From a bacterium (GTDB taxonomy: Bacteria; Cyanobacteriota; Vampirovibrionia; Gastranaerophilales; Gastranaerophilaceae), in assembly GCA_017477685.1 (NCBI GenBank), contig JAFUUT010000207.1:1-31322 (forward strand): a DNA stretch of 31,322 nt, written 5' to 3'. The position numbers and the translations under genes are program-made. The first letter of the stretch is position 1. Every line of letters starts with the position of its first letter. Below are positions 13,680 to 30,906 of this stretch, piece by piece. The notes beneath the pieces are model-generated. The model saw only the letters and a list, made by a program, of their open reading frames with translations. It did not search any database and was not told the DNA's origin.

Positions 13680-14258
13680 ATGTTAAGCACTGGTATGAAT
13701 TATGGGTTAGGTACAACAGGGATGTCATCTCCAAAGGATATTTTGACAAATGCTTATGCAAATCCGATGACAACATGCTCTGCAACCGGCAGTATAAATG
13801 TGAATGGTGCAGTATTGCCAACGAATTATGACAATGATTTTTTGATGCCCGAGGAGTTAAAAATCGGGAATTACCTGAACGGTCAGGCTTCAATGCAAGG
13901 TAATCCTTATCAAACAACTCAAACAGGTGATCAATTTGTAAGTTCTCAAACTCCTGTTCCTCAGCAGCAGGATTATTATCAACAGACTCAAATGCAAAAT
14001 CCTGAGCAAGCGCAAGCAGAAGTGCAAGAGCAAGAACAAGATGCAGCGTCTAAAAAGGGATTTTCTCTAAAGACAAAAGCAGGTATATTAGGTTTTGCCG
14101 CTCCGGTGCTTGCTTGTGCGTATAAGGTACTAAAGGGAGCAAAAGCTTCAACTGTCTTTAATAAAGAATTACTGGTTAAATGCCCAATCTTAGCTGCAGT
14201 AGGCTTTGTAGTCGGCGGTTTGGCCGAAAAATTCTTTGGCAATAAAGCAGCAGCTTAA
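13680..14258 (+). CDS. Hypothetical Gln-rich protein with two C-terminal hydrophobic segments
   Basis: 192-aa ORF with AAAGG RBS. Q-rich middle region; GILGFAAPVLACAY and ILAAVGFVVGGLA segments. Confidence 0.7.
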   Translation: MLSTGMNYGLGTTGMSSPKDILTNAYANPMTTCSATGSINVNGAVLPTNYDNDFLMPEELKIGNYLNGQASMQGNPYQTTQTGDQFVSSQTPVPQQQDYYQQTQMQNPEQAQAEVQEQEQDAASKKGFSLKTKAGILGFAAPVLACAYKVLKGAKASTVFNKELLVKCPILAAVGFVVGGLAEKFFGNKAAA

Positions 14259-17455: not shown

Positions 17456-18034
17456 TTACTCCTCATCAGAAGGTTTGTTTTCCCCTGCAAGATATTCCAT
17501 TTGTTTTTCCACTTCAGCTTTATTTTTTGCATTAGGATTCAAATCTAAGTACTTTGTGTAATTTTGTAGTGCAGAGTCTTTTAATTCTTCACAAAGAGAG
17601 GTTTCTTTTTCGCTCATCTCATATTTTTCATCAAAATTTAAATCCTCTGCTTTTGGGGTATATAAGCTGTCATCAACATTCATTCTTACTCTGCCCTGTT
17701 CAAGGTCAATAATCAAATTATTTTGTGCGGTTGCAAGTGAGTAATATACTTCCGGAACATCAGATTTGATTTCAATTGCTTTTTTGTATTCTTCTACCGC
17801 ATTTATATAATCCTCCGATTGGGTATATGCAACAGCAAGATTGTAGTGGGTTTCAAAAATCGTAGGATCAAGGTCTATACTTGATTTCAATCTCTCAATC
17901 GCTTGAGCATAATCTCCTTTTTGCATGTATGTTTGGGCTTTATTATTTAAATCTTGAACGGCAAAATTATTTATGCAAGCTGTAGATATAACCGCAACAA
18001 GTAATATACTTACTAATAAAAGAACCTTTTTCAT
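17456..18034 (-). CDS. TPR-repeat lipoprotein
   Basis: Signal peptide with lipobox ISTAC; TPR patterns such as HYNLAVAYTQSEDYINAVEEYKKAIEI. Confidence 0.85.
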   Translation of the reverse strand: MKKVLLLVSILLVAVISTACINNFAVQDLNNKAQTYMQKGDYAQAIERLKSSIDLDPTIFETHYNLAVAYTQSEDYINAVEEYKKAIEIKSDVPEVYYSLATAQNNLIIDLEQGRVRMNVDDSLYTPKAEDLNFDEKYEMSEKETSLCEELKDSALQNYTKYLDLNPNAKNKAEVEKQMEYLAGENKPSDEE

Positions 18035-18144
18035 ATTTTCCCTCTTATAATCAAACGCGTGTTAATTAATTATAATTTAATCATAAAAATATGGCAAATT
18101 TAATTAATTTAAGTTACAATAAATTTTATAAAAGGAGAATTTGT

Positions 18145-18408
18145 ATGTCAGATGATAAAGTAGTAAGTCTTGGTTCTAAAAAGAAAAAATCATCAAAGCA
18201 TGAGGAAGAAAATATAAATCAAGATGTTGTATATTGTAGTTTTTGCGGCAGACCAAATACTCAAGTAATTAAAATGATTAAAGGCCCTGGGGTAAATATA
18301 TGTTCTGAATGTACTATGATTGCAGTACAATACTTGATACTTCAAGACAGGATGCCGTCTGCTGAAGCTCAGCAAATCTTGGATGCATTTTGGGGAAAGG
18401 CAAGATAA
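18145..18408 (+). CDS. Stand-alone ClpX-type C4 zinc-finger protein
   Basis: CSFCGRPNTQVIKMIKGPGVNICSECT matches the ClpX ZBD pattern CSFCGK..V..L..GPGV.IC.EC. No ATPase follows. Start at ATG 18145 after AAGGAG. Confidence 0.88.
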   Translation: MSDDKVVSLGSKKKKSSKHEEENINQDVVYCSFCGRPNTQVIKMIKGPGVNICSECTMIAVQYLILQDRMPSAEAQQILDAFWGKAR

Positions 18409-18411
18409 AGT

Positions 18412-20004
18412 TTGAGTATTAAAGTGAAACAATTGAATCCTTTTGAATTGAAAACCACATTAATAAAATTATTATCAGGTATAAATTCAGTAAATGATAT
18501 TCAGAATTGTCTTTCTGAGATAGAACTTCTTGATGCCCAAGAGGATAAGACGGTTCTTTCAAAGTTGCTATTTAAAGAATTAATGAATGCGGATAATGCA
18601 AAAATTCCGGTAATATGTTTTCTTTTAGAACATTTTATTAAGAAAGAGGATTTGGTAAGCGGACTTTGGGAAACATTAAATAACAAGTCAGTTAAAAGTG
18701 AGGCAAAAATTACTATAATAAATCTTTTGAGAGAACTGGATGCGGATTGGTCTTTTGAGGATTTTGCGGATTATGCGGAAGATGCGGATGAAATTCTGGA
18801 CGAAAATACAAGGCAGCTTTTGAATAATGCAATAATCAATCCTGAAGTTCAAATTGATTTTATGGATTTTATGGCATCTATAAAGGTTGAAGATAAAATA
18901 ACTTTACTCAATTCTTTCGGAAAAGATTTTAGTGATGATGCATTGGCCAATATATTGATTCCTGTTTTTGAGTCAAACCCAAGTAGTCCTGAGGGGAAAG
19001 AAGCTTTGAGAATGCTGGGCGAAACAAAATCTCAACTTGCTCTAAGTGTGCTTGAAAGAATGCAGAATTTAACCGAAGGTGAACTTAATCAATCTATTCG
19101 CAAGAGTTTAGCAACATTAAAAATGTCTGGTATAAGAGAAGATAATACAAAAGAATTTTATCGTGAAATTCTTTCAAACAGTAAACCGGATAAGTTCTAT
19201 GTTACATATCCTGACGGGCATGGTGATATGGCTATGATATGTACAAGAATTACCGAAGATAAAAGGATAAGATTTATTTCCGTTGTTACAAATATTGATA
19301 CTGGAATAAGAGATTGTTTCGGGTTTTATGATATTTCGCAGTTCGAGTGTGATAAAATTCTTGAAAGATTTTTGAAGGATGAAAAAGTTGCCTCTGTATC
19401 TGCGGAAACATTTAAAAATATTCTGTATAACAGCGAAATTCAAACTATTAAATCGAATAGTAATAATTGGGAGCTTCCTTATGAATATGTATGCTGGAAA
19501 AATCTTTTGATTGATATTGATTCGGAGGATGTTTTGATTGAGGATGTAGTGAAATCAGATGTTTCCGGTGTAGAAGTTGATGATTCAATTTTTACAAAAT
19601 TAAAAGAGATGAAAGTTTCTTCACATTGGTTTCTTGACGGATACTACAGCGATGAATTCGAAGAATTGCTGAAATATTTGAAAGGAAATAAGGATTTAGA
19701 TTCTGCCGAAAAACTTTATATTGATAAGGTCTTTTATAAAGAGGAAAAAGAATCATGGGTCAAAAAGCTTTATGTGTCTGCATATATCAAGTTGATGCTT
19801 GGTAAAAAAGATGAGGCAGAACAGATATACGGTTTGATTAGCGATAAAGTATTATTGGATAAATTTTTCGACAATTTGTTAAAACGTAGTATTTATGAGT
19901 ATTTTATGACGATAAAATATAATAAGGATATGAATGTTTTGCACTATTGTGATGATGAAATTATTTCAAAGATTGAGTATATAGAAAAGAATTGGGTAAG
20001 TTAG
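18412..20004 (+). CDS. Hypothetical protein, probable HEAT/alpha-solenoid region
   Basis: 530-aa ORF with TTG start 3 nt after the previous stop. HEAT-like segments such as EALRMLGETKSQLALSVLERM. Confidence 0.8.
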   Translation: MSIKVKQLNPFELKTTLIKLLSGINSVNDIQNCLSEIELLDAQEDKTVLSKLLFKELMNADNAKIPVICFLLEHFIKKEDLVSGLWETLNNKSVKSEAKITIINLLRELDADWSFEDFADYAEDADEILDENTRQLLNNAIINPEVQIDFMDFMASIKVEDKITLLNSFGKDFSDDALANILIPVFESNPSSPEGKEALRMLGETKSQLALSVLERMQNLTEGELNQSIRKSLATLKMSGIREDNTKEFYREILSNSKPDKFYVTYPDGHGDMAMICTRITEDKRIRFISVVTNIDTGIRDCFGFYDISQFECDKILERFLKDEKVASVSAETFKNILYNSEIQTIKSNSNNWELPYEYVCWKNLLIDIDSEDVLIEDVVKSDVSGVEVDDSIFTKLKEMKVSSHWFLDGYYSDEFEELLKYLKGNKDLDSAEKLYIDKVFYKEEKESWVKKLYVSAYIKLMLGKKDEAEQIYGLISDKVLLDKFFDNLLKRSIYEYFMTIKYNKDMNVLHYCDDEIISKIEYIEKNWVS

Positions 20005-20409
20005 ATGTATAAAGTAATGGCGCTTGATGTGGGAACAAAAAGAATAGGAATTGCTTTAAGCGATTTTCTTTTGATGCTGGCTCAGGGGCATTCTTATATC
20101 TCTCGTAAACCCGAGGATAAGGCGTTAGAGGCTATATACAAAATAGCGAAAGAAAACCATGTAGAAAAAATTGTTGTCGGTTTACCTCTAAATATGGACG
20201 GTACAAAGGGGTTTCAGGCGCAGGATTGCGAAGAATTTGCTTCAAAGATTCAAGGATATGAAATTATTTTTGAAGATGAACGCTTGACTTCAGACTCTGC
20301 GGAAGAAAATCTTAGAGCAAAGAAAATAGATTTTAAAAAAGATAAAGGACTGGTTGATATTGAAAGTGCTTGTATTATACTGGAACAATATATATCAAGA
20401 AAAAAATAG
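20005..20409 (+). CDS. ruvX: Holliday junction resolvase-like / pre-16S rRNA nuclease YqgF
   Basis: ALDVGTKRIGIALSD, VVGLPLNMDG, EDERLTS and D..SACIILE. Confidence 0.95.
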   Translation: MYKVMALDVGTKRIGIALSDFLLMLAQGHSYISRKPEDKALEAIYKIAKENHVEKIVVGLPLNMDGTKGFQAQDCEEFASKIQGYEIIFEDERLTSDSAEENLRAKKIDFKKDKGLVDIESACIILEQYISRKK

Positions 20410-20418
20410 GAGGCTGAT

Positions 20419-20685
20419 ATGGCAGAAGAAGAAAACAACATTATTGAAATTACAGATGATGAAGGCAATACTATCAAATGCGAATTATATGATATAATTG
20501 AATTTGAAAACAATCAATATGCAGTGTTGATTGAGGCTGAAACGGAAGAAGAAAATCCGGAAATGGTATTGATGAGATATACTGAAGAAGATGGTGAAAG
20601 CTATTTTGAAACTATTGAAGATGATGAAGAATTTGAAAAAGTTTCAGAATATATAGAAAGTTTGGAAGAAGTAGAAGAGGAATAG
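20419..20685 (+). CDS. DUF1292-like acidic protein
   Basis: IEITDDEGN...FENNQYAVL...IEDDEEFEKV, located downstream of ruvX as in Firmicutes. Confidence 0.82.
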   Translation: MAEEENNIIEITDDEGNTIKCELYDIIEFENNQYAVLIEAETEEENPEMVLMRYTEEDGESYFETIEDDEEFEKVSEYIESLEEVEEE

Positions 20686-20689
20686 AGTC

Positions 20690-22048
20690 TTGTTTGAAAA
20701 ATTTACTGAAAAAGCGTTAAATGTAATTCTTGAAGCGCAGAATATTGCAATTTATGACCAAAGTGACAAGGTTTTATCCGAGCATTTGCTTTTGGCTCTT
20801 GTAAAAGAAACGAAAGGATTTTGTGCAAAGATATTCAGTTCTTCCCATATCACTTATGATGCGCTGGCAAAAGAGATTTATATGACGCTGGATATTGAAG
20901 AGTCCGATTTAAACTCGGCTATTCCTTTCAGTGAAGATTTCAAACGTATTCTAAAAAGAACAATGGATTTGGTTGACGAATCGGGAAATTCTACTGTTCA
21001 TTATGAACATTTGGTTCTTGCCGCAATAAATGACAAGCATTCCAAAATTTCTCAGTATCTTGAAAATTTAGGTTTTGATATTGACAAGTCCCGTCCATTG
21101 ATAGAAAAACTTGTTCAAAGAAAAGTTAAGAACGATTTTCATCCTGAAAATGATGATAATAAAGAACCGGAGATTAATCTTACGCAGGAAACGGATTCTC
21201 TGTTTGATAATCCGGAATCTTCAAAGGTTTTTGAGCGTGCAGTTTCAAAATTGTCCACTTCTGACTATGAAATTTTAGGAACAGAGCAAATCATATCTTC
21301 AATATTGGAAGATAAAGATTCCTCTTTGACAAAAATTCTCGCGCAATTCGGAATTACAGAGGAGGGATTTGATGAAAAACTCTCAAAAGTCCAATCCCGC
21401 AGTGCGGAGTATGAAGGACGACAGATAGTTTTTACTCCGAATGCTTTTATTGCAATGAGTCTTGCGCAGCAAACAGCAAAAGAACTTGGTTCATCGGAAG
21501 TCTTGCCTGAACATATGATTTTAGGTCTTTTGAAATCTAAAAAGGGTGTAGCCTATAATATTTTGAAAGAATTCAAGATTAATGATGATGATTTGGCTCA
21601 TACAATTATAAAACCGATTGAAAAAGAAATGCCTGAAACACTGACAGTTTTGCGTCTTGCAAAGCAAGAAGCACGCAGAATGGGAAAAAGTGTTGTCGGA
21701 ACAGAGATGTTTTTACTTGGCATAATAGGGGAAGCTACCGGAGTAGGCGCTCAAGTTTTAAAAGGACTGGAGATAAATATAAAAGATGCGCGTCTGATTG
21801 TTGAACAAATGATTGGTTTTGGAAATGATTATTTTGATAGTGAAATGTCATTTACAAAACGTGCAAAAAGGGTTCTTGAAACGGCTTGGGATTATGCCAA
21901 AAAAGCCAACAAAACCAAAATCAGTTCATCTGATTTGTTATGGGCAATCACGACAGAGCCTGATTCTACTGCAATGCAGGTATTGGAACAGCTGGGTACC
22001 GACGTATTGGAAATCCGGGAAGGGGTTAAAAAGTACTTAGCTAAATAG
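20690..22048 (+). CDS. Protein of three tandem Clp N-terminal (Clp-R) domains, no AAA+ module
   Basis: MFEKFTEKALNVI...EHLLLAL; six Clp-repeat-like motifs (SEHLL, YEHLV, GTEQI, PEHMI, GTEMF, SSDLL). No Walker A. Confidence 0.85.
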   Translation: MFEKFTEKALNVILEAQNIAIYDQSDKVLSEHLLLALVKETKGFCAKIFSSSHITYDALAKEIYMTLDIEESDLNSAIPFSEDFKRILKRTMDLVDESGNSTVHYEHLVLAAINDKHSKISQYLENLGFDIDKSRPLIEKLVQRKVKNDFHPENDDNKEPEINLTQETDSLFDNPESSKVFERAVSKLSTSDYEILGTEQIISSILEDKDSSLTKILAQFGITEEGFDEKLSKVQSRSAEYEGRQIVFTPNAFIAMSLAQQTAKELGSSEVLPEHMILGLLKSKKGVAYNILKEFKINDDDLAHTIIKPIEKEMPETLTVLRLAKQEARRMGKSVVGTEMFLLGIIGEATGVGAQVLKGLEINIKDARLIVEQMIGFGNDYFDSEMSFTKRAKRVLETAWDYAKKANKTKISSSDLLWAITTEPDSTAMQVLEQLGTDVLEIREGVKKYLAK

Positions 22049-22077
22049 TTTTTATATACTAAGGTCTGCCCTGCATT

Positions 22078-22296
22078 TTAAACATACGGCTTTGTTCTTA
22101 CAAATTTTAGGTCGTAACCGAGGATTTGTCCGATTAATTTTGCTTCTTCATATTTTAATGTCTTGCGAGATAATTTTTGAGAGAGGTTAGAGCGTGTGTA
22201 ATTATGTCCAGAAATTCTAGTCATTTCTTTTGCCACAAAAGTTATTGTAGTTTCGTTTTCAGTAAGTAATAGCTTTATATCTTTTCTTACGCTCAT
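22078..22296 (-). CDS. Small HTH-like transcriptional regulator (72 aa)
   Basis: MSVRKDIKLLLTENETTITFVAKEM...YTRSNLSQKLSRKTLKYEEAKLIGQILGYDLKF. AGGAGG RBS 5' of ATG 22296. Confidence 0.75.
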   Translation of the reverse strand: MSVRKDIKLLLTENETTITFVAKEMTRISGHNYTRSNLSQKLSRKTLKYEEAKLIGQILGYDLKFVRTKPYV

Positions 22297-22309
22297 TTTT
22301 CCTCCTACA

Positions 22310-22400
22310 ACATATTGACACATTTAAACTTTTTTGATAATAGTCGTAATTATATAGGAACGAACGTAAAATATTTATGACGAAATTGTATACAAAATTA
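22310..22400. promoter_or_regulatory. Divergent promoter/operator region
   Basis: TTGACA at 22315, minus-strand TATAAT at 22349-22354, imperfect IR GTCGTAA/TTATGAC and palindrome TTGTATACAA (22386-22395). Confidence 0.5.
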
Positions 22401-22417
22401 CATATTAAGGAATATTT

Positions 22418-22753
22418 ATGAGATATAAACCAATTATACAAATTGATTTGGATGGGGTTTTGAACACGTATAACGGGGATTATGATAAGGATTTTATTCA
22501 TCCTGTAAAAGAGGGTGCAAAAGATTTTTTAGAAAAAATGTATGCAAAATACAAATTGGTTTTGTTTTCTGCAAGGGATACCGAAATGACAGCAAAATGG
22601 CTGCGGGATAACGGAATACGAGAGTATTTTTCCGATATAACAAATGTTAAGACAAATGCTTATTTAACTGTCGATGACAGGTGTGTATGTTTTAGAGGTG
22701 ATTATGAGTCTTTAATTTGTGATATAGATAACTTCAAAGTTTGGTATAAATAA
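22418..22753 (+). CDS. Small capless HAD-superfamily hydrolase
   Basis: Motif I IDLDGVL, motif II FSAR and motif IV VDDR. Confidence 0.8.
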   Translation: MRYKPIIQIDLDGVLNTYNGDYDKDFIHPVKEGAKDFLEKMYAKYKLVLFSARDTEMTAKWLRDNGIREYFSDITNVKTNAYLTVDDRCVCFRGDYESLICDIDNFKVWYK

Positions 22754-22784
22754 TGATATTCGTGATAAAATTTTATTATCAATT

Positions 22785-24131
22785 ATGAATAAAATTCATC
22801 AGATAATAAAATCTTTTCTTGTTGATTACAATCTGAATAATCCGGATTTAGTTTATCTTGTTGCGTTTTCCGGCGGGTATGATTCTATGTGTCTTTTGGA
22901 TTCTTTAAAAAAGGTTTGCCCTGATAATAAAATCATTGCGCTTCACCTAAATCACAACTGGCGCGGGGAAGAAAGCGACAGTGAGGAACAAAATTGTGCC
23001 GATTTTTGTAAAAAAATCGGGGTTGAATTTTATAGTGAAAAATTAAGTTCGGATGTTCCTAAAAATGAAACTGCCGCACGTGATGCCCGTTATGAATTTT
23101 TCTATAAGTGCGCAAAAAAGTACAATTCAAATATTATATTTACTGCTCATAATAAAAATGACAATGCCGAAACATTAATATTTAGAATTTGTCATGGTAC
23201 GGGTGTAAACGGACTTCGAGGAATTTCGCCTAAAAGAGATATTTTTTACAGACCGATTTTGGGTATTGAAAGAAAAGATATTGAAGACTATTGCAGAATA
23301 AATAATTTATCTCCGAATTATGATTCCTCAAATGATGATAATATTCACAAAAGGAATTTAATTCGTTCTGAAATTTTACCTTTAATAAAAAAAGAATTGA
23401 ATGAGAATATTCTTGAAGCGTTAAATTCCTTATCTGTTGTTGCAGCGGAAGAAACTGAGATAGTTAAAGAATATATATCAAAAATCAGGGAGAAAATATG
23501 TTTTGAAAAGTCAAAATATAAAACAAAAGATTTTTTACAGTTGTCAGAAAGTGTTCAAAAGCGTGTTATCTACGAAATTATGACTCCATTAATCCCTGAA
23601 AATTATGATAGAGAACGTTTACTGATTTTATGGAATTTTATTAAAGATAACTGCAATTTAAAATCCGGAAAAACTATTTCTGTTACAAAAGGTTATTTGC
23701 TTTTTGTAAATGATAAGTTTTTTGAAATTATTTCTGATAATGTCAAAGAGGAAGTATCTATTAATATAAAAAGTGCAGGAGAATATCGTTATGGAGGATT
23801 TAGTTTCAATATTTTCGAATGTAATTCAAACACTGATAAATGTGCTGGCATTTCTGGCGGGTCTGTTTTCGTGGATTTGTCCGATGTAGATTTTGATTTT
23901 GTGTTGAGAACAAGACAAGACGGAGATATAATTCAACCTTTTGGAATGTCAGGACATCAAAAATTAAAAAAATATCTAAATGCTAAAAAAATTCCTAATC
24001 ATCAAAAAGACAAATTATTATTTTTGGCTCAAGGTAAAGAAATTTTGTGGTCTGAAATTGGTATGAGTGAGAAAATTCGTGTAAAAACAAGACCTACACA
24101 TGTGATTATAATAAAGAAAGAAGGTATATAA
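22785..24131 (+). CDS. tilS: tRNA(Ile)-lysidine synthetase
   Basis: AFSGGYDSMCL, ARDARY, TAHNKNDNAET, RGISP, YRPIL and RNLIR. An extended -10 (TG-A-TAAAAT, 22763-22771) lies just upstream. Confidence 0.96.
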   Translation: MNKIHQIIKSFLVDYNLNNPDLVYLVAFSGGYDSMCLLDSLKKVCPDNKIIALHLNHNWRGEESDSEEQNCADFCKKIGVEFYSEKLSSDVPKNETAARDARYEFFYKCAKKYNSNIIFTAHNKNDNAETLIFRICHGTGVNGLRGISPKRDIFYRPILGIERKDIEDYCRINNLSPNYDSSNDDNIHKRNLIRSEILPLIKKELNENILEALNSLSVVAAEETEIVKEYISKIREKICFEKSKYKTKDFLQLSESVQKRVIYEIMTPLIPENYDRERLLILWNFIKDNCNLKSGKTISVTKGYLLFVNDKFFEIISDNVKEEVSINIKSAGEYRYGGFSFNIFECNSNTDKCAGISGGSVFVDLSDVDFDFVLRTRQDGDIIQPFGMSGHQKLKKYLNAKKIPNHQKDKLLFLAQGKEILWSEIGMSEKIRVKTRPTHVIIIKKEGI

Positions 24132-24655: not shown

Positions 24656-24704
24656 CATTATACGAAGTTTTATGGTAATATTTGACTATATTGGAGTAAA
24701 AAAA

Positions 24705-25301
24705 ATGACTACAACACAAACAGAAACAGTAAAATTTGACCCCGGATATGCTCAGCATACAACTATATTGTCAATAAGTTTGGAATATATTTATTCTTCA
24801 TTAAATTCGTATAAAAATTTCGGGCAGAAAAAAGCAAAATTCAAAATGCTTTATCCGCAAATTAAAAGAATGGTGGATAATAATGTCGGTTTTTGTTTGG
24901 GAAGTCTTTTGTGGGCTGTTTATATCAAATCATTGGGGGATATAAAAATAGAAGGCAATCCTTGTTTTGGGGACACATATGACAAAGAGGAAACTTGTTC
25001 TGAGGTAGATTTTTCAATTGAATACTATGAGCAATTGAAAAAAGATGCAAAATATTATCTCGGTCAAGATTATCAAATTAATCCTTTGCATATTACAATA
25101 TTGAATTTGTATAAGGAATTCCTTACAGAAAATATGAATTTTGTTAATACTAAAACAACAAATGATGTCAAACTTCCTGAAAAATTTAAGATGCCGTCAA
25201 AGGATGAACTTTTGGCAATTTATTCAAAAATAAATGAGGTAATTCAATCCGGCAATCTTCTTGATTTAGCAGATGTCTTTAGTTTTGTTTATGAAGGATA
25301 G
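24705..25301 (+). CDS. Hypothetical protein
   Basis: Long ORF; start taken as ATG 24705 after GGAG. No family recognised. Confidence 0.75.
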   Translation: MTTTQTETVKFDPGYAQHTTILSISLEYIYSSLNSYKNFGQKKAKFKMLYPQIKRMVDNNVGFCLGSLLWAVYIKSLGDIKIEGNPCFGDTYDKEETCSEVDFSIEYYEQLKKDAKYYLGQDYQINPLHITILNLYKEFLTENMNFVNTKTTNDVKLPEKFKMPSKDELLAIYSKINEVIQSGNLLDLADVFSFVYEG

Positions 25302-29274: not shown

Positions 29275-29751
29275 TTATCTATTGTGCGAATGGTGTTGAT
29301 GATTGTGATGATGAGAATTATCTCTGTCACGCGGTGGCGGAGGCGGTCTTCTGTCCCTGTCATTCCTGTAATCATCGCCATCGTCACTTAGTAATGTAAA
29401 TGCTGCCGCTCCCAGTACCAATGCTCCGATACCAAGCCCTGTAAGGATAGGGTGTCTGTCAGAGAAAGAGGCTTTTTGCGGCTTATACTCTGTATTATTG
29501 CTTGTTGTCTGAGTATTATATGTGTATTCTTGTTCTCTTGGAATAATATTTGTTGTTACAGTTCCATAATACGCATCATCAGATGAATACGCTTGATATG
29601 GTCTGTTTGACTCAACAGGTTGAGCGTATGTATTGTTGTAATACGTCGAATTGTTACTGCCGGGGGCAGTAAATACCCAGTTTTCCGCACTGAATGCCAA
29701 ATTTGATGCCGACATTAATAGCACCAAAAATATGGCAAGTATTCTCTTCAT
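29275..29751 (-). CDS. Exported/membrane hypothetical protein with Pro- and His-rich tail
   Basis: Signal peptide MKRILAIFLVLLMSASNLAFS, hydrophobic segment ILTGLGIGALVLGAAAFTL, tail RRPPPPPR...HHHNHQHHSH. GGAGG RBS. Confidence 0.8.
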   Translation of the reverse strand: MKRILAIFLVLLMSASNLAFSAENWVFTAPGSNNSTYYNNTYAQPVESNRPYQAYSSDDAYYGTVTTNIIPREQEYTYNTQTTSNNTEYKPQKASFSDRHPILTGLGIGALVLGAAAFTLLSDDGDDYRNDRDRRPPPPPRDRDNSHHHNHQHHSHNR

Positions 29752-29862: not shown

Positions 29863-30906
29863 TTATATGTCGTAAAAATTTTGTACAAATTTTGATCTGA
29901 GTAAAACTTGCATTCTATGTGTTGAAGGGAAGTATAAATACAATCTTTCGCTATTTTTATCATAATAGCTGTATGCTGTTTTTACTTTGTTGTTATCAAA
30001 ACCTTTTTGCGGAGTAGAAAGGTATTTTATTGTTTTTATTTCTTTTGAATCAATGTCATGACCTGCAAATTCTTCCAGTCTTTCTTTAAAAGGAGCATAT
30101 ATGTCTTCTGTTCCCTCAGTTTCATCTAATTGAGAAGTTTTGCTTTTTGCAGGGTTTCCATTTAGTACGAGTGTTTCGTCTTTTTTAATATCAGGTGTTC
30201 TTTCTAATATATACGGGACGAAGACTTCTATATTGTCATTTCTGATAAATTCCCCATGAAGTGTATCTTTTAGATTTTGAATCATTGAGCCCAGAGATTT
30301 TTCGTTTTCATAATCTTCTAAACTTCTGCAAGCTTCTTCTCTATTTTGTGCATATATTGAGAATTTACATGGTTTACCTTCTACTTCTAAATATACAGCA
30401 GCTCTTTGTGTTGTCGGGTCTTTTTCAAAGTGAACTATATTTATATCTTTTGCAAGGGCATTTCTATATATTTCAAGCTGTGCTTTGTGGTCATTATTTC
30501 TGTATAAACCGAGCTTGTCAGCGATATCCATCAATTCAAAAGGTATTTCTTCATTGTATGAATTTAATATACTGTCAGCCAGCCAAAACTTGATTTTTTC
30601 TTCTTTATTATCTCCTGCTTGGAAACATTCTATAGGGATTTTAATTTCTCCAAAATCTCCGTTATTGTTTTCCAGTGCAACAATGTTTTCAATGGTGTCT
30701 ATTTTTGCAATATTACAAGCTTCCATAATCTTGTCCATGTCTTCATCGTTTAGTATTGGTTCTGCAAAATCATCATTATTGCCGTGGAGTTCAAAAATAT
30801 CCTGCTCTAAATCGTTCCCTTTGAATGCAATATGTTTATTTTGATTTAAGAGATTTGTTTGGTAATTGTAATTACTTGTAATTTGATAATTTGATAATAT
30901 TTTCAT
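29863..30906 (-). CDS. Hypothetical protein (347 aa), paralogue of the truncated gene upstream
   Basis: Long ORF with AAGGA RBS. N/Q-rich N-terminus ending IAFKG; C-terminus aligns with the 31081-31320 frame. Confidence 0.82.
   Translation of the reverse strand: MKILSNYQITSNYNYQTNLLNQNKHIAFKGNDLEQDIFELHGNNDDFAEPILNDEDMDKIMEACNIAKIDTIENIVALENNNGDFGEIKIPIECFQAGDNKEEKIKFWLADSILNSYNEEIPFELMDIADKLGLYRNNDHKAQLEIYRNALAKDINIVHFEKDPTTQRAAVYLEVEGKPCKFSIYAQNREEACRSLEDYENEKSLGSMIQNLKDTLHGEFIRNDNIEVFVPYILERTPDIKKDETLVLNGNPAKSKTSQLDETEGTEDIYAPFKERLEEFAGHDIDSKEIKTIKYLSTPQKGFDNNKVKTAYSYYDKNSERLYLYFPSTHRMQVLLRSKFVQNFYDI

Follow-up and report, generated by a model that had tools for sequence, protein, structure and literature searches.

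We analysed a 31,322-nt stretch of DNA, here called the window (GenBank assembly GCA_017477685.1, contig JAFUUT010000207.1, positions 1 to 31,322 of the forward strand), from a gut metagenome-assembled genome (MAG) of the bacterial family Gastranaerophilaceae, order Gastranaerophilales (Melainabacteria). At positions 18145-22048 it carries five consecutive genes encoding a free zinc ribbon of the kind found as the zinc-binding domain of ClpX (ZBD), a 530-aa protein (U530), the nuclease RuvX/YqgF, a DUF1292 protein and a protein made of three Clp N-domains (ClpN3). The features, all on the plus strand, are as follows.

18131-18139, plus strand: Shine-Dalgarno sequence AAAGGAGAA of the ZBD gene, read from the sequence, 5 nt before the ATG at 18145
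18145-18408, plus strand: ZBD, a free ClpX-type C4 zinc ribbon of 87 aa (PF06689)
18412-20004, plus strand: U530, a 530-aa acidic HEAT-like protein with a TTG start and no Pfam or NCBIfam family
20005-20409, plus strand: RuvX/YqgF, an RNase H-fold nuclease of 134 aa (PF03652, TIGR00250)
20419-20685, plus strand: DUF1292 protein of 88 aa (PF06949)
20690-22048, plus strand: ClpN3, three tandem Clp N-domains (six Clp_N repeats), 452 aa, TTG start

The intergenic gaps are 3, 0, 9 and 4 nt, and genes 2 and 5 start with TTG; the list of open reading frames and the junction sequences agree with the first-pass annotation of this DNA on the tight coupling and on both unusual starts. Shine-Dalgarno-like purine runs precede every start in the junction sequences. 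The ZBD gene is taken to begin at ATG 18145 and not at ATG 18091, because AAAGGAGAA lies 5 nt upstream of the former and the N-termini of orthologues agree with it. The 110-nt gap at 18035-18144, between the block and a divergent TPR gene, is the likely promoter region; the promoter-like matches are consensus matches only and are uninformative in AT-rich DNA. A terminator scan of positions 17900-22900 found no intrinsic terminator.

The first-pass annotation had read the two Clp-related products as a joint decoy for Clp proteases, perhaps assembled on the HEAT-like protein. We arrive, tentatively and with a little less than even confidence, at a different reading, in which the locus is a lineage-specific Gastranaerophilales housekeeping operon built around the single RuvX/YqgF, and not a unified Clp decoy system. 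Gene order was taken from the coordinates of whole-genome searches, covering the order (families f1-f10, of which f1 is the window's own, Gastranaerophilaceae; 61 genomes) and the rest of the class sample (f11-f20, of which f11 is the sister lineage of the order), and from 20 fetched loci that were read individually. Order and strand of the five genes are kept in 79 of 80 related family-level loci, with exceptions at contig ends, and the arrangement is thus not a chance one. The flanks are syntenic as well: lgt and the TPR gene precede the block on the opposite strand, and tilS and hpt come after it. Outside f1, ZBD, U530 and RuvX form one block in every one of the ten loci read from the order's remaining nine families, and in the two f11 loci as well. 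The DUF1292 gene comes next after ruvX in f11 and across the order, f8 being the one family in which tblastn found none at the locus. The ZBD-U530 junction spans 3-70 nt, and both this junction and that between U530 and RuvX are kept where the surrounding genes differ.

U530 reaches further still. It adjoins ruvX in 16 of the 20 distant loci, and it lies next to RuvX with neither free ZBD nor ClpN3 in three families, f14 (one of four loci), f18 (two of three) and f20 (the single locus); tblastn detected no DUF1292 gene beside these pairs. In one genome (G122) the U530 and RuvX genes overlap by 16 nt, with a radical-SAM gene upstream on the opposite strand. ClpN3 behaves differently from the rest of the block: it adjoins the DUF1292 gene only in f1, in the other families its gene is found on a different contig or far away, and the 12 ClpN3 loci outside f1 have no common neighbour. 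The durable unit is thus ZBD-U530-RuvX-DUF1292, its oldest layer is U530-RuvX, and ClpN3 joined the block only in Gastranaerophilaceae. Of the neighbourhood conservation on which the first-pass annotation had staked its proposal, the part concerning ZBD, the HEAT-like protein, RuvX and DUF1292 survives; the pairing of the ribbon with the triple N-domain protein does not, since ClpN3 is unlinked in every family of the order except f1.

Domain searches (Pfam and NCBIfam) and AlphaFold modelling bear out the earlier assignments of all five products. U530 is an acidic protein (isoelectric point (pI) 4.7, 61 kDa) with no Pfam or NCBIfam family above threshold. Its AlphaFold2 (AF2) model is confident, with a mean pLDDT of 91.8 and a pTM of 0.81 over the full length and a pLDDT of 95.6 for residues 254-530. 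In this model residues 1-253 form an acidic HEAT/ARM-like alpha-solenoid with 14 helices within residues 10-238, residues 257-348 form a four-stranded alpha/beta domain, and the C-terminal domain is helical. Most of the invariant residues fall in the alpha/beta domain; the invariant positions include D268, G269, R279, Y357 and E358. HEAT_2 matches appear in 10 of 68 homologues and not in the window protein itself, so that the label "HEAT-like" holds at the level of the fold. The solenoid (residues 5-243) drew only generic matches from VIA, with Z of about 8 to MIF4G, HEAT and VHS domains, and Foldseek searches of the PDB, run with the full model and with residues 254-530, had no match at E<=0.001. 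WGR-like matches of the alpha/beta domain reach Z 5.2-5.5 at best in the VIA-wide search and are too weak to use. Pfam DUF7401, considered as a family for U530, was set aside: it scores a sub-threshold 15 bits and occurs in only 2 of the 68 homologues.

A word-indexed search gathered 1231 U530 relatives, which form 245 clusters at 50% identity and extend down to about 23% identity at equal length. Beyond the class, the phylum yielded one further family (five of six genomes) and one weak partial match in another, and U530 was not found in most of the cyanobacterial families sampled. A metagenome scan with a distant representative (P0343) found no relative. Look-alikes in the ESM Atlas, which we treat as leads only, include Pseudomonadota proteins of about 520-550 aa with Y4lR_2nd, Y4lR_C and DUF7401 matches, and HEAT_2 proteins of Chloroflexota and Thermodesulfobacteriota. 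U530 may thus belong to a wider uncharacterised superfamily. In genus g2 (for example G052, G058, G043, G053, G211, G229 and G253) the U530 profile match crosses one or two C-terminal stop codons and the open frames are shorter, at 504-526 aa; in this genus the protein seems to end in a curtailed last helix or to lack it.

The ZBD protein scores 51 bits against zf-C4_ClpX (PF06689; cut-off 27) and only 29-31 bits against the ClpX equivalogs TIGR00382 and NF003745 (cut-offs 359-371), which makes it a member of the domain family and not a ClpX. It is basic (pI 8.4) and has a Lys-rich tail. The N-termini of four ClpX proteins from the lineage were aligned with 82 distinct orthologues. The four Cys are kept in at least 90% of the orthologues, and the ribbon core, CSFCG...GP.V.IC.EC followed by a helix, is shared with the lineage's ClpX. 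Two conserved motifs are specific to the ZBD family, an N-terminal KVVSL and a C-terminal helix DRxPxxEAQxILxAFW, and a variable charged linker is also present. Because these family-specific motifs are conserved and ClpX lacks them, we regard ZBD as a long-standing paralogue under its own constraints. It resembles the ClpX ZBD in its C4 ribbon and following helix, which align with the ClpX ZBD of relatives; it differs from ClpX in having no AAA+ module, in its KVVSL and AFW motifs, in being encoded with U530 and ruvX and not with clpP, and in forming a separate, order-wide orthologous family.

Small ZBD relatives number about 2000, and the named ones are called "ClpX C4-type zinc finger protein" at NCBI; one orthologue is annotated as ribosomal protein L37AE/L43A (JGI), and phage families of unassigned function also include small ZBD-like members. 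Within the class sample, f1 and f11 are the only families whose genomes all show a second ZBD match, and a few large f12 genomes have extra copies. Two relatives carry additional free ribbons between clpP and clpX, one as a 90-aa open reading frame with two tandem ClpX-type ribbons (L134:1433-1705, genome G060) and the other as a 53-aa single ribbon (L135:334-495, genome G061). From this placement, free ZBDs would seem to originate as duplicates of the 5' end of clpX, and they may act with ClpXP.

RuvX is a full-length family member above the curated cut-offs (PF03652, 128 bits; TIGR00250, 109 bits against a cut-off of 43), with no difference from the RuvX/YqgF family detected, and it is the single, ordinary housekeeping copy in the genome. 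Acidic residues can be seen by eye in its ALDVG, FEDERLTS and VDIES segments, read from the sequence without alignment to a characterised YqgF. Segments of these types are where YqgF proteins carry their catalytic carboxylates. YqgF is widely essential and poorly understood. In E. coli and Deinococcus its RNase activity is directed at rRNA or pre-16S rRNA (PMC9601230). The DUF1292 product, also encoded by a single copy, scores 54 bits against PF06949 (cut-off 24) and is very acidic (pI 4.05; 35 D+E against 3 K+R).

A comparable pair exists in Firmicutes. Bacillus subtilis has a DUF1292 gene, and we take its YrzB to be a DUF1292 member. In that organism yrzL, yrrK, yrzB and yrrL carry consecutive locus tags (BSU27400-27380 for reoM/yrzL, yrrK(ruvX) and yrzB) (PMC3814617), and YrzL/ReoM promotes the degradation of MurA by ClpCP (PMC7286690, PMC8528326). 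The Firmicute yrzL(reoM/ireB)-yrrK(ruvX)-yrzB cluster and the block described here are alike in that a protein of about 90 aa precedes the ruvX-DUF1292 pair. They differ in that the small protein here is a zinc ribbon and not an IreB/DUF965 fold, and in that U530 is inserted before ruvX.

ClpN3 consists of six Clp_N repeats (173 bits), or three N-domains at about residues 1-150, 181-312 and 313-452, and of no other domain; no Walker A motif was found in any of the five products. Against the NCBIfam models of class I Hsp100 proteins (ClpA/ClpB/ClpC) it reaches 26-92 bits, where the cut-offs are 885-1900. It resembles ClpC at the sequence level: the best PDB match of domain 3 is the N-domain of chloroplast ClpC1 (5gui, E 7e-30), domain 3 also shares 44% identity with the ClpC of a member of the genus (tblastn, in which ClpC matches over residues 1-152 only), and the N-terminus, MFEKFTEKA, mirrors the MFERFTEKA of ClpC. 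ClpN3 has thousands of relatives, which among the matches listed are 82-100% identical and of equal length, and orthologues of full length (450-500 aa) are present in 57 of the order's 61 genomes and in the two f11 genomes.

Stand-alone Clp N-domain proteins are known from other lineages, ClpC2 as an antibiotic sponge or transcriptional repressor (PMC10030653, PMC13345244) and ClpT1 as a protease accessory (PMC4243950). Like actinobacterial ClpC2, a homologue of the ClpC1 N-domain that also binds phospho-arginine, ClpN3 is a motor-less protein of the ClpC N-domain type that occurs beside a full-length ClpC (PMC10030653, PMC13345244), and PDB chains of ClpC2 match it weakly; ClpC2 differs in having one N-domain together with an N-terminal DNA-binding/dimerisation domain, where ClpN3 has three N-domains only, and in belonging to another phylum. 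The plastid proteins ClpT1 and ClpT2 are likewise stand-alone proteins with a double Clp-N motif that accompany ClpC and ClpP, and they come from the cyanobacterial/plastid lineage (PMC4243950). ClpT-type PDB chains (4y0b, 4y0c) match domain 3 of ClpN3. ClpT is nonetheless a single N-domain of about 180 aa that attaches to the ClpPR core, whereas ClpN3 is triple and its genome has a single clpP. In ClpC, residues E32 and E106 mark the phospho-arginine (pArg) pockets, and the N-domain gates ClpC activation (PMC12583610). The equivalents of these residues, the glutamates of GTE and PEH, are kept in five of the six ClpN3 repeats. The Thr equivalent to ClpC T7 is kept in domain 1 only. Domain 1 has counterparts of T6, E31, K85 and E106 and carries S at position 81; domain 3 has M, K or R at the T6 position, and in family f1 its E106 equivalent is lost (S). 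We regard the kept residues as general features of Clp_N repeats, which speak neither for nor against a pArg pocket in ClpN3.

The window's MAG (1.6 Mb, 390 contigs, 84% complete) has a single clpP (contig C10) with no clpX after it, a ClpB-like gene on contig C45, and a clpC truncated at the end of contig C135. An assembly search with tblastn found no clpX, and the ZBD gene is the sole ClpX-ZBD match in the assembly. Full-length ClpX, zinc ribbon included, scores above the curated cut-off in 58 of the 61 genomes of the order, among them members of the same genus, and the relatives also carry ClpC and ClpP. Given these relatives and the incompleteness of the MAG, the missing clpX is an assembly gap, as is the cut clpC; and because relatives carry full-length ClpX, ZBD and ClpN3 are additions and not replacements. 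McsB is the maker of the pArg tag in Bacillus. No arginine kinase of its family (PF00217) turned up in the order's 61 genomes, 44 of which are of high quality, or in the window's own genome; the search for mcsB proposed by the first-pass annotation thus came back empty, and a pArg route through McsB was rejected. ClpS was likewise not found in the MAG. Mycobacteria also lack McsB (PMC13345244), and its absence is therefore not decisive.

These observations can be assembled into several accounts of the locus. The account of the first-pass annotation has ZBD and ClpN3 acting as one system that titrates or redirects the clients of ClpX and ClpC on the HEAT scaffold and couples proteolysis to RuvX-dependent ribosome maturation. 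Part of it stands, since both proteins are intact, conserved, motor-less paralogues of true docking domains that occur beside full-length ClpX, ClpC and ClpP. They also share an identical phyletic range (the order and f11) and, in Gastranaerophilaceae, an orientation and tight spacing. This common range, however, belongs to a single clade and so amounts to one evolutionary event. In nine of the ten families of the order, and in f11, ClpN3 lies apart from the block, and U530-RuvX occurs with neither module in three families; that McsB was not found in the order, nor ClpS in the MAG, likewise tells against it. A Clp theme does recur near ruvX: in the Firmicute order of reoM before ruvX (PMC3814617, PMC7286690), in the free ribbon mini-genes between clpP and clpX of two relatives, and in f18, where five genomes (G122:C5, G146:C2, G140:C1, G152:C4 and G137:C6) have a full-length clpC in the same orientation, 6-8 kb upstream of U530-ruvX. 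ReoM, for its part, has no homology to ZBD. Because U530 tracks RuvX and not Clp, and ClpN3 is an independent gene, the neighbourhood does not bear out a joint decoy on the HEAT scaffold, and we consider this account unlikely. In view of the same recurrences (ReoM-ruvX, the f18 clpC and the clpP-clpX mini-ribbons) and of the shared range of ZBD and ClpN3, the block may still have some link to Clp. In a broader version, RuvX operons would repeatedly have recruited regulators of Clp proteolysis (ReoM in Firmicutes, ZBD and ClpN3 in Gastranaerophilales), and ZBD, U530, RuvX and DUF1292 would form a complex that, in its abundance or through its ribosome-associated clients, is handed to or shielded from ClpXP and ClpCP, with U530 as a hitherto unrecognised adaptor scaffold; this we hold to be more improbable still.

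At the other extreme, the five could be functionally independent housekeeping genes crowded together in a small genome. The ribbon would then be a generic zinc ribbon with no tie to Clp, such as one that binds nucleic acid or the ribosome, and ClpN3 an unrelated chaperone-like holdase. The synteny of the whole lgt-hpt region would fit this, as would the L37AE/L43A label on one orthologue, the basic charge and Lys-rich tail of ZBD and the ZBD-like small proteins of phage families. We think it rather doubtful all the same: the ZBD-U530 and U530-RuvX junctions persist across lineages whose surroundings differ, and the ribbon lies well above the ClpX-ZBD cut-off, with a core (CSFCG...GP..ICxEC) like that of the lineage's ClpX ZBD. 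That ZBD and ClpN3 might be remnants of broken clpX and clpC genes, as an assembly with no clpX and a clpC cut by a contig end could suggest, can be dismissed with near certainty. Intact ClpX was found in all but three of the order's genomes, and same-length orthologues of both proteins run throughout the order. A tblastn search of the window with the ClpX and ClpC of a same-genus relative matched the ribbon and the N-domains but gave no trace of an AAA+ module even at E<=1. The remark in the first-pass annotation that no frameshifted ATPase sequence was visible was thus correct. Several points weigh against our own reading of a RuvX-centred housekeeping operon. The flanks are broadly syntenic in small, related genomes, and adjacency within the order is therefore weak evidence on its own; U530 is not beside ruvX in four of the eight loci outside the order and f11; its alpha/beta domain has no informative structural match in Foldseek or the VIA-wide search; the shared phyletic range of ZBD and ClpN3 could equally mean that they work together; and the functional steps set out below are deduced from gene order and fold.

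If the operon is indeed built around RuvX, U530 would be the ancestral partner of the nuclease, a proposed scaffold or specificity factor that might place RuvX on a ribonucleoprotein substrate. ZBD would be a later arrival that probably dimerises like the ClpX ZBD and docks on U530 by way of the conserved motifs at its two ends; in that position it could also link the complex with ClpX, or act as a mimic of the ClpX ZBD. The DUF1292 protein would serve as an acidic accessory of RuvX, by analogy with Firmicutes. ClpN3 would be a separate, order-wide derivative of the ClpC N-domain that does not depend on McsB. By analogy with ClpC2 and ClpT, it would most likely compete for, or hold multivalently, the ligands of the ClpC N-domain, such as adaptors, unfolded substrates and the M-domains of ClpC, and its co-transcription with the block in Gastranaerophilaceae would be a secondary rearrangement.

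Motor-less Clp N-domain proteins and free ZBD annotations are already known kinds; the ZBD-U530-RuvX-DUF1292 block, the triple N-domain architecture and the order-wide family of free ZBDs are undescribed variants from an uncultured lineage. Stand-alone Clp docking domains are known regulators; neither a protein of three N-domains nor a conserved free ribbon of the ClpX type has been studied before. The order-wide presence of ZBD and ClpN3 suggests that both have a regular function in proteostasis in these bacteria, which are common in the gut and rumen. U530, kept beside YqgF and sometimes overlapping it, is a concrete candidate cofactor of the nuclease, and the small gene that recurs before ruvX-DUF1292 in two phyla is a further candidate.

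An anti-phage defence system was also considered and rejected: PADLOC defence models gave no match for ZBD, U530, the DUF1292 protein or ClpN3. In one of the f18 loci with an upstream clpC (L113, G122:C5), the interval between clpC and U530-ruvX holds an uncharacterised 340-aa gene, a TPR gene and a reverse-strand radical-SAM/DUF512 gene. Elsewhere in the window, further open reading frames with no Pfam family (157-346 aa) lie at 24672-25301, 13680-14258, 29275-29751 and 29863-30906. Positions 22049-22784 are a small insertion between ClpN3 and tilS that carries two genes, one for an 81-aa protein of no family on the minus strand (22078-22323) and one for a 111-aa protein with a DLDGVL motif of the HAD type and weak matches to the phage families phrog_1238 and phrog_415 (22418-22753). 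Neither was found in the related loci, save for one weak helix-turn-helix match elsewhere in L046, and in nearly all related loci that reach so far tilS follows ClpN3 directly.

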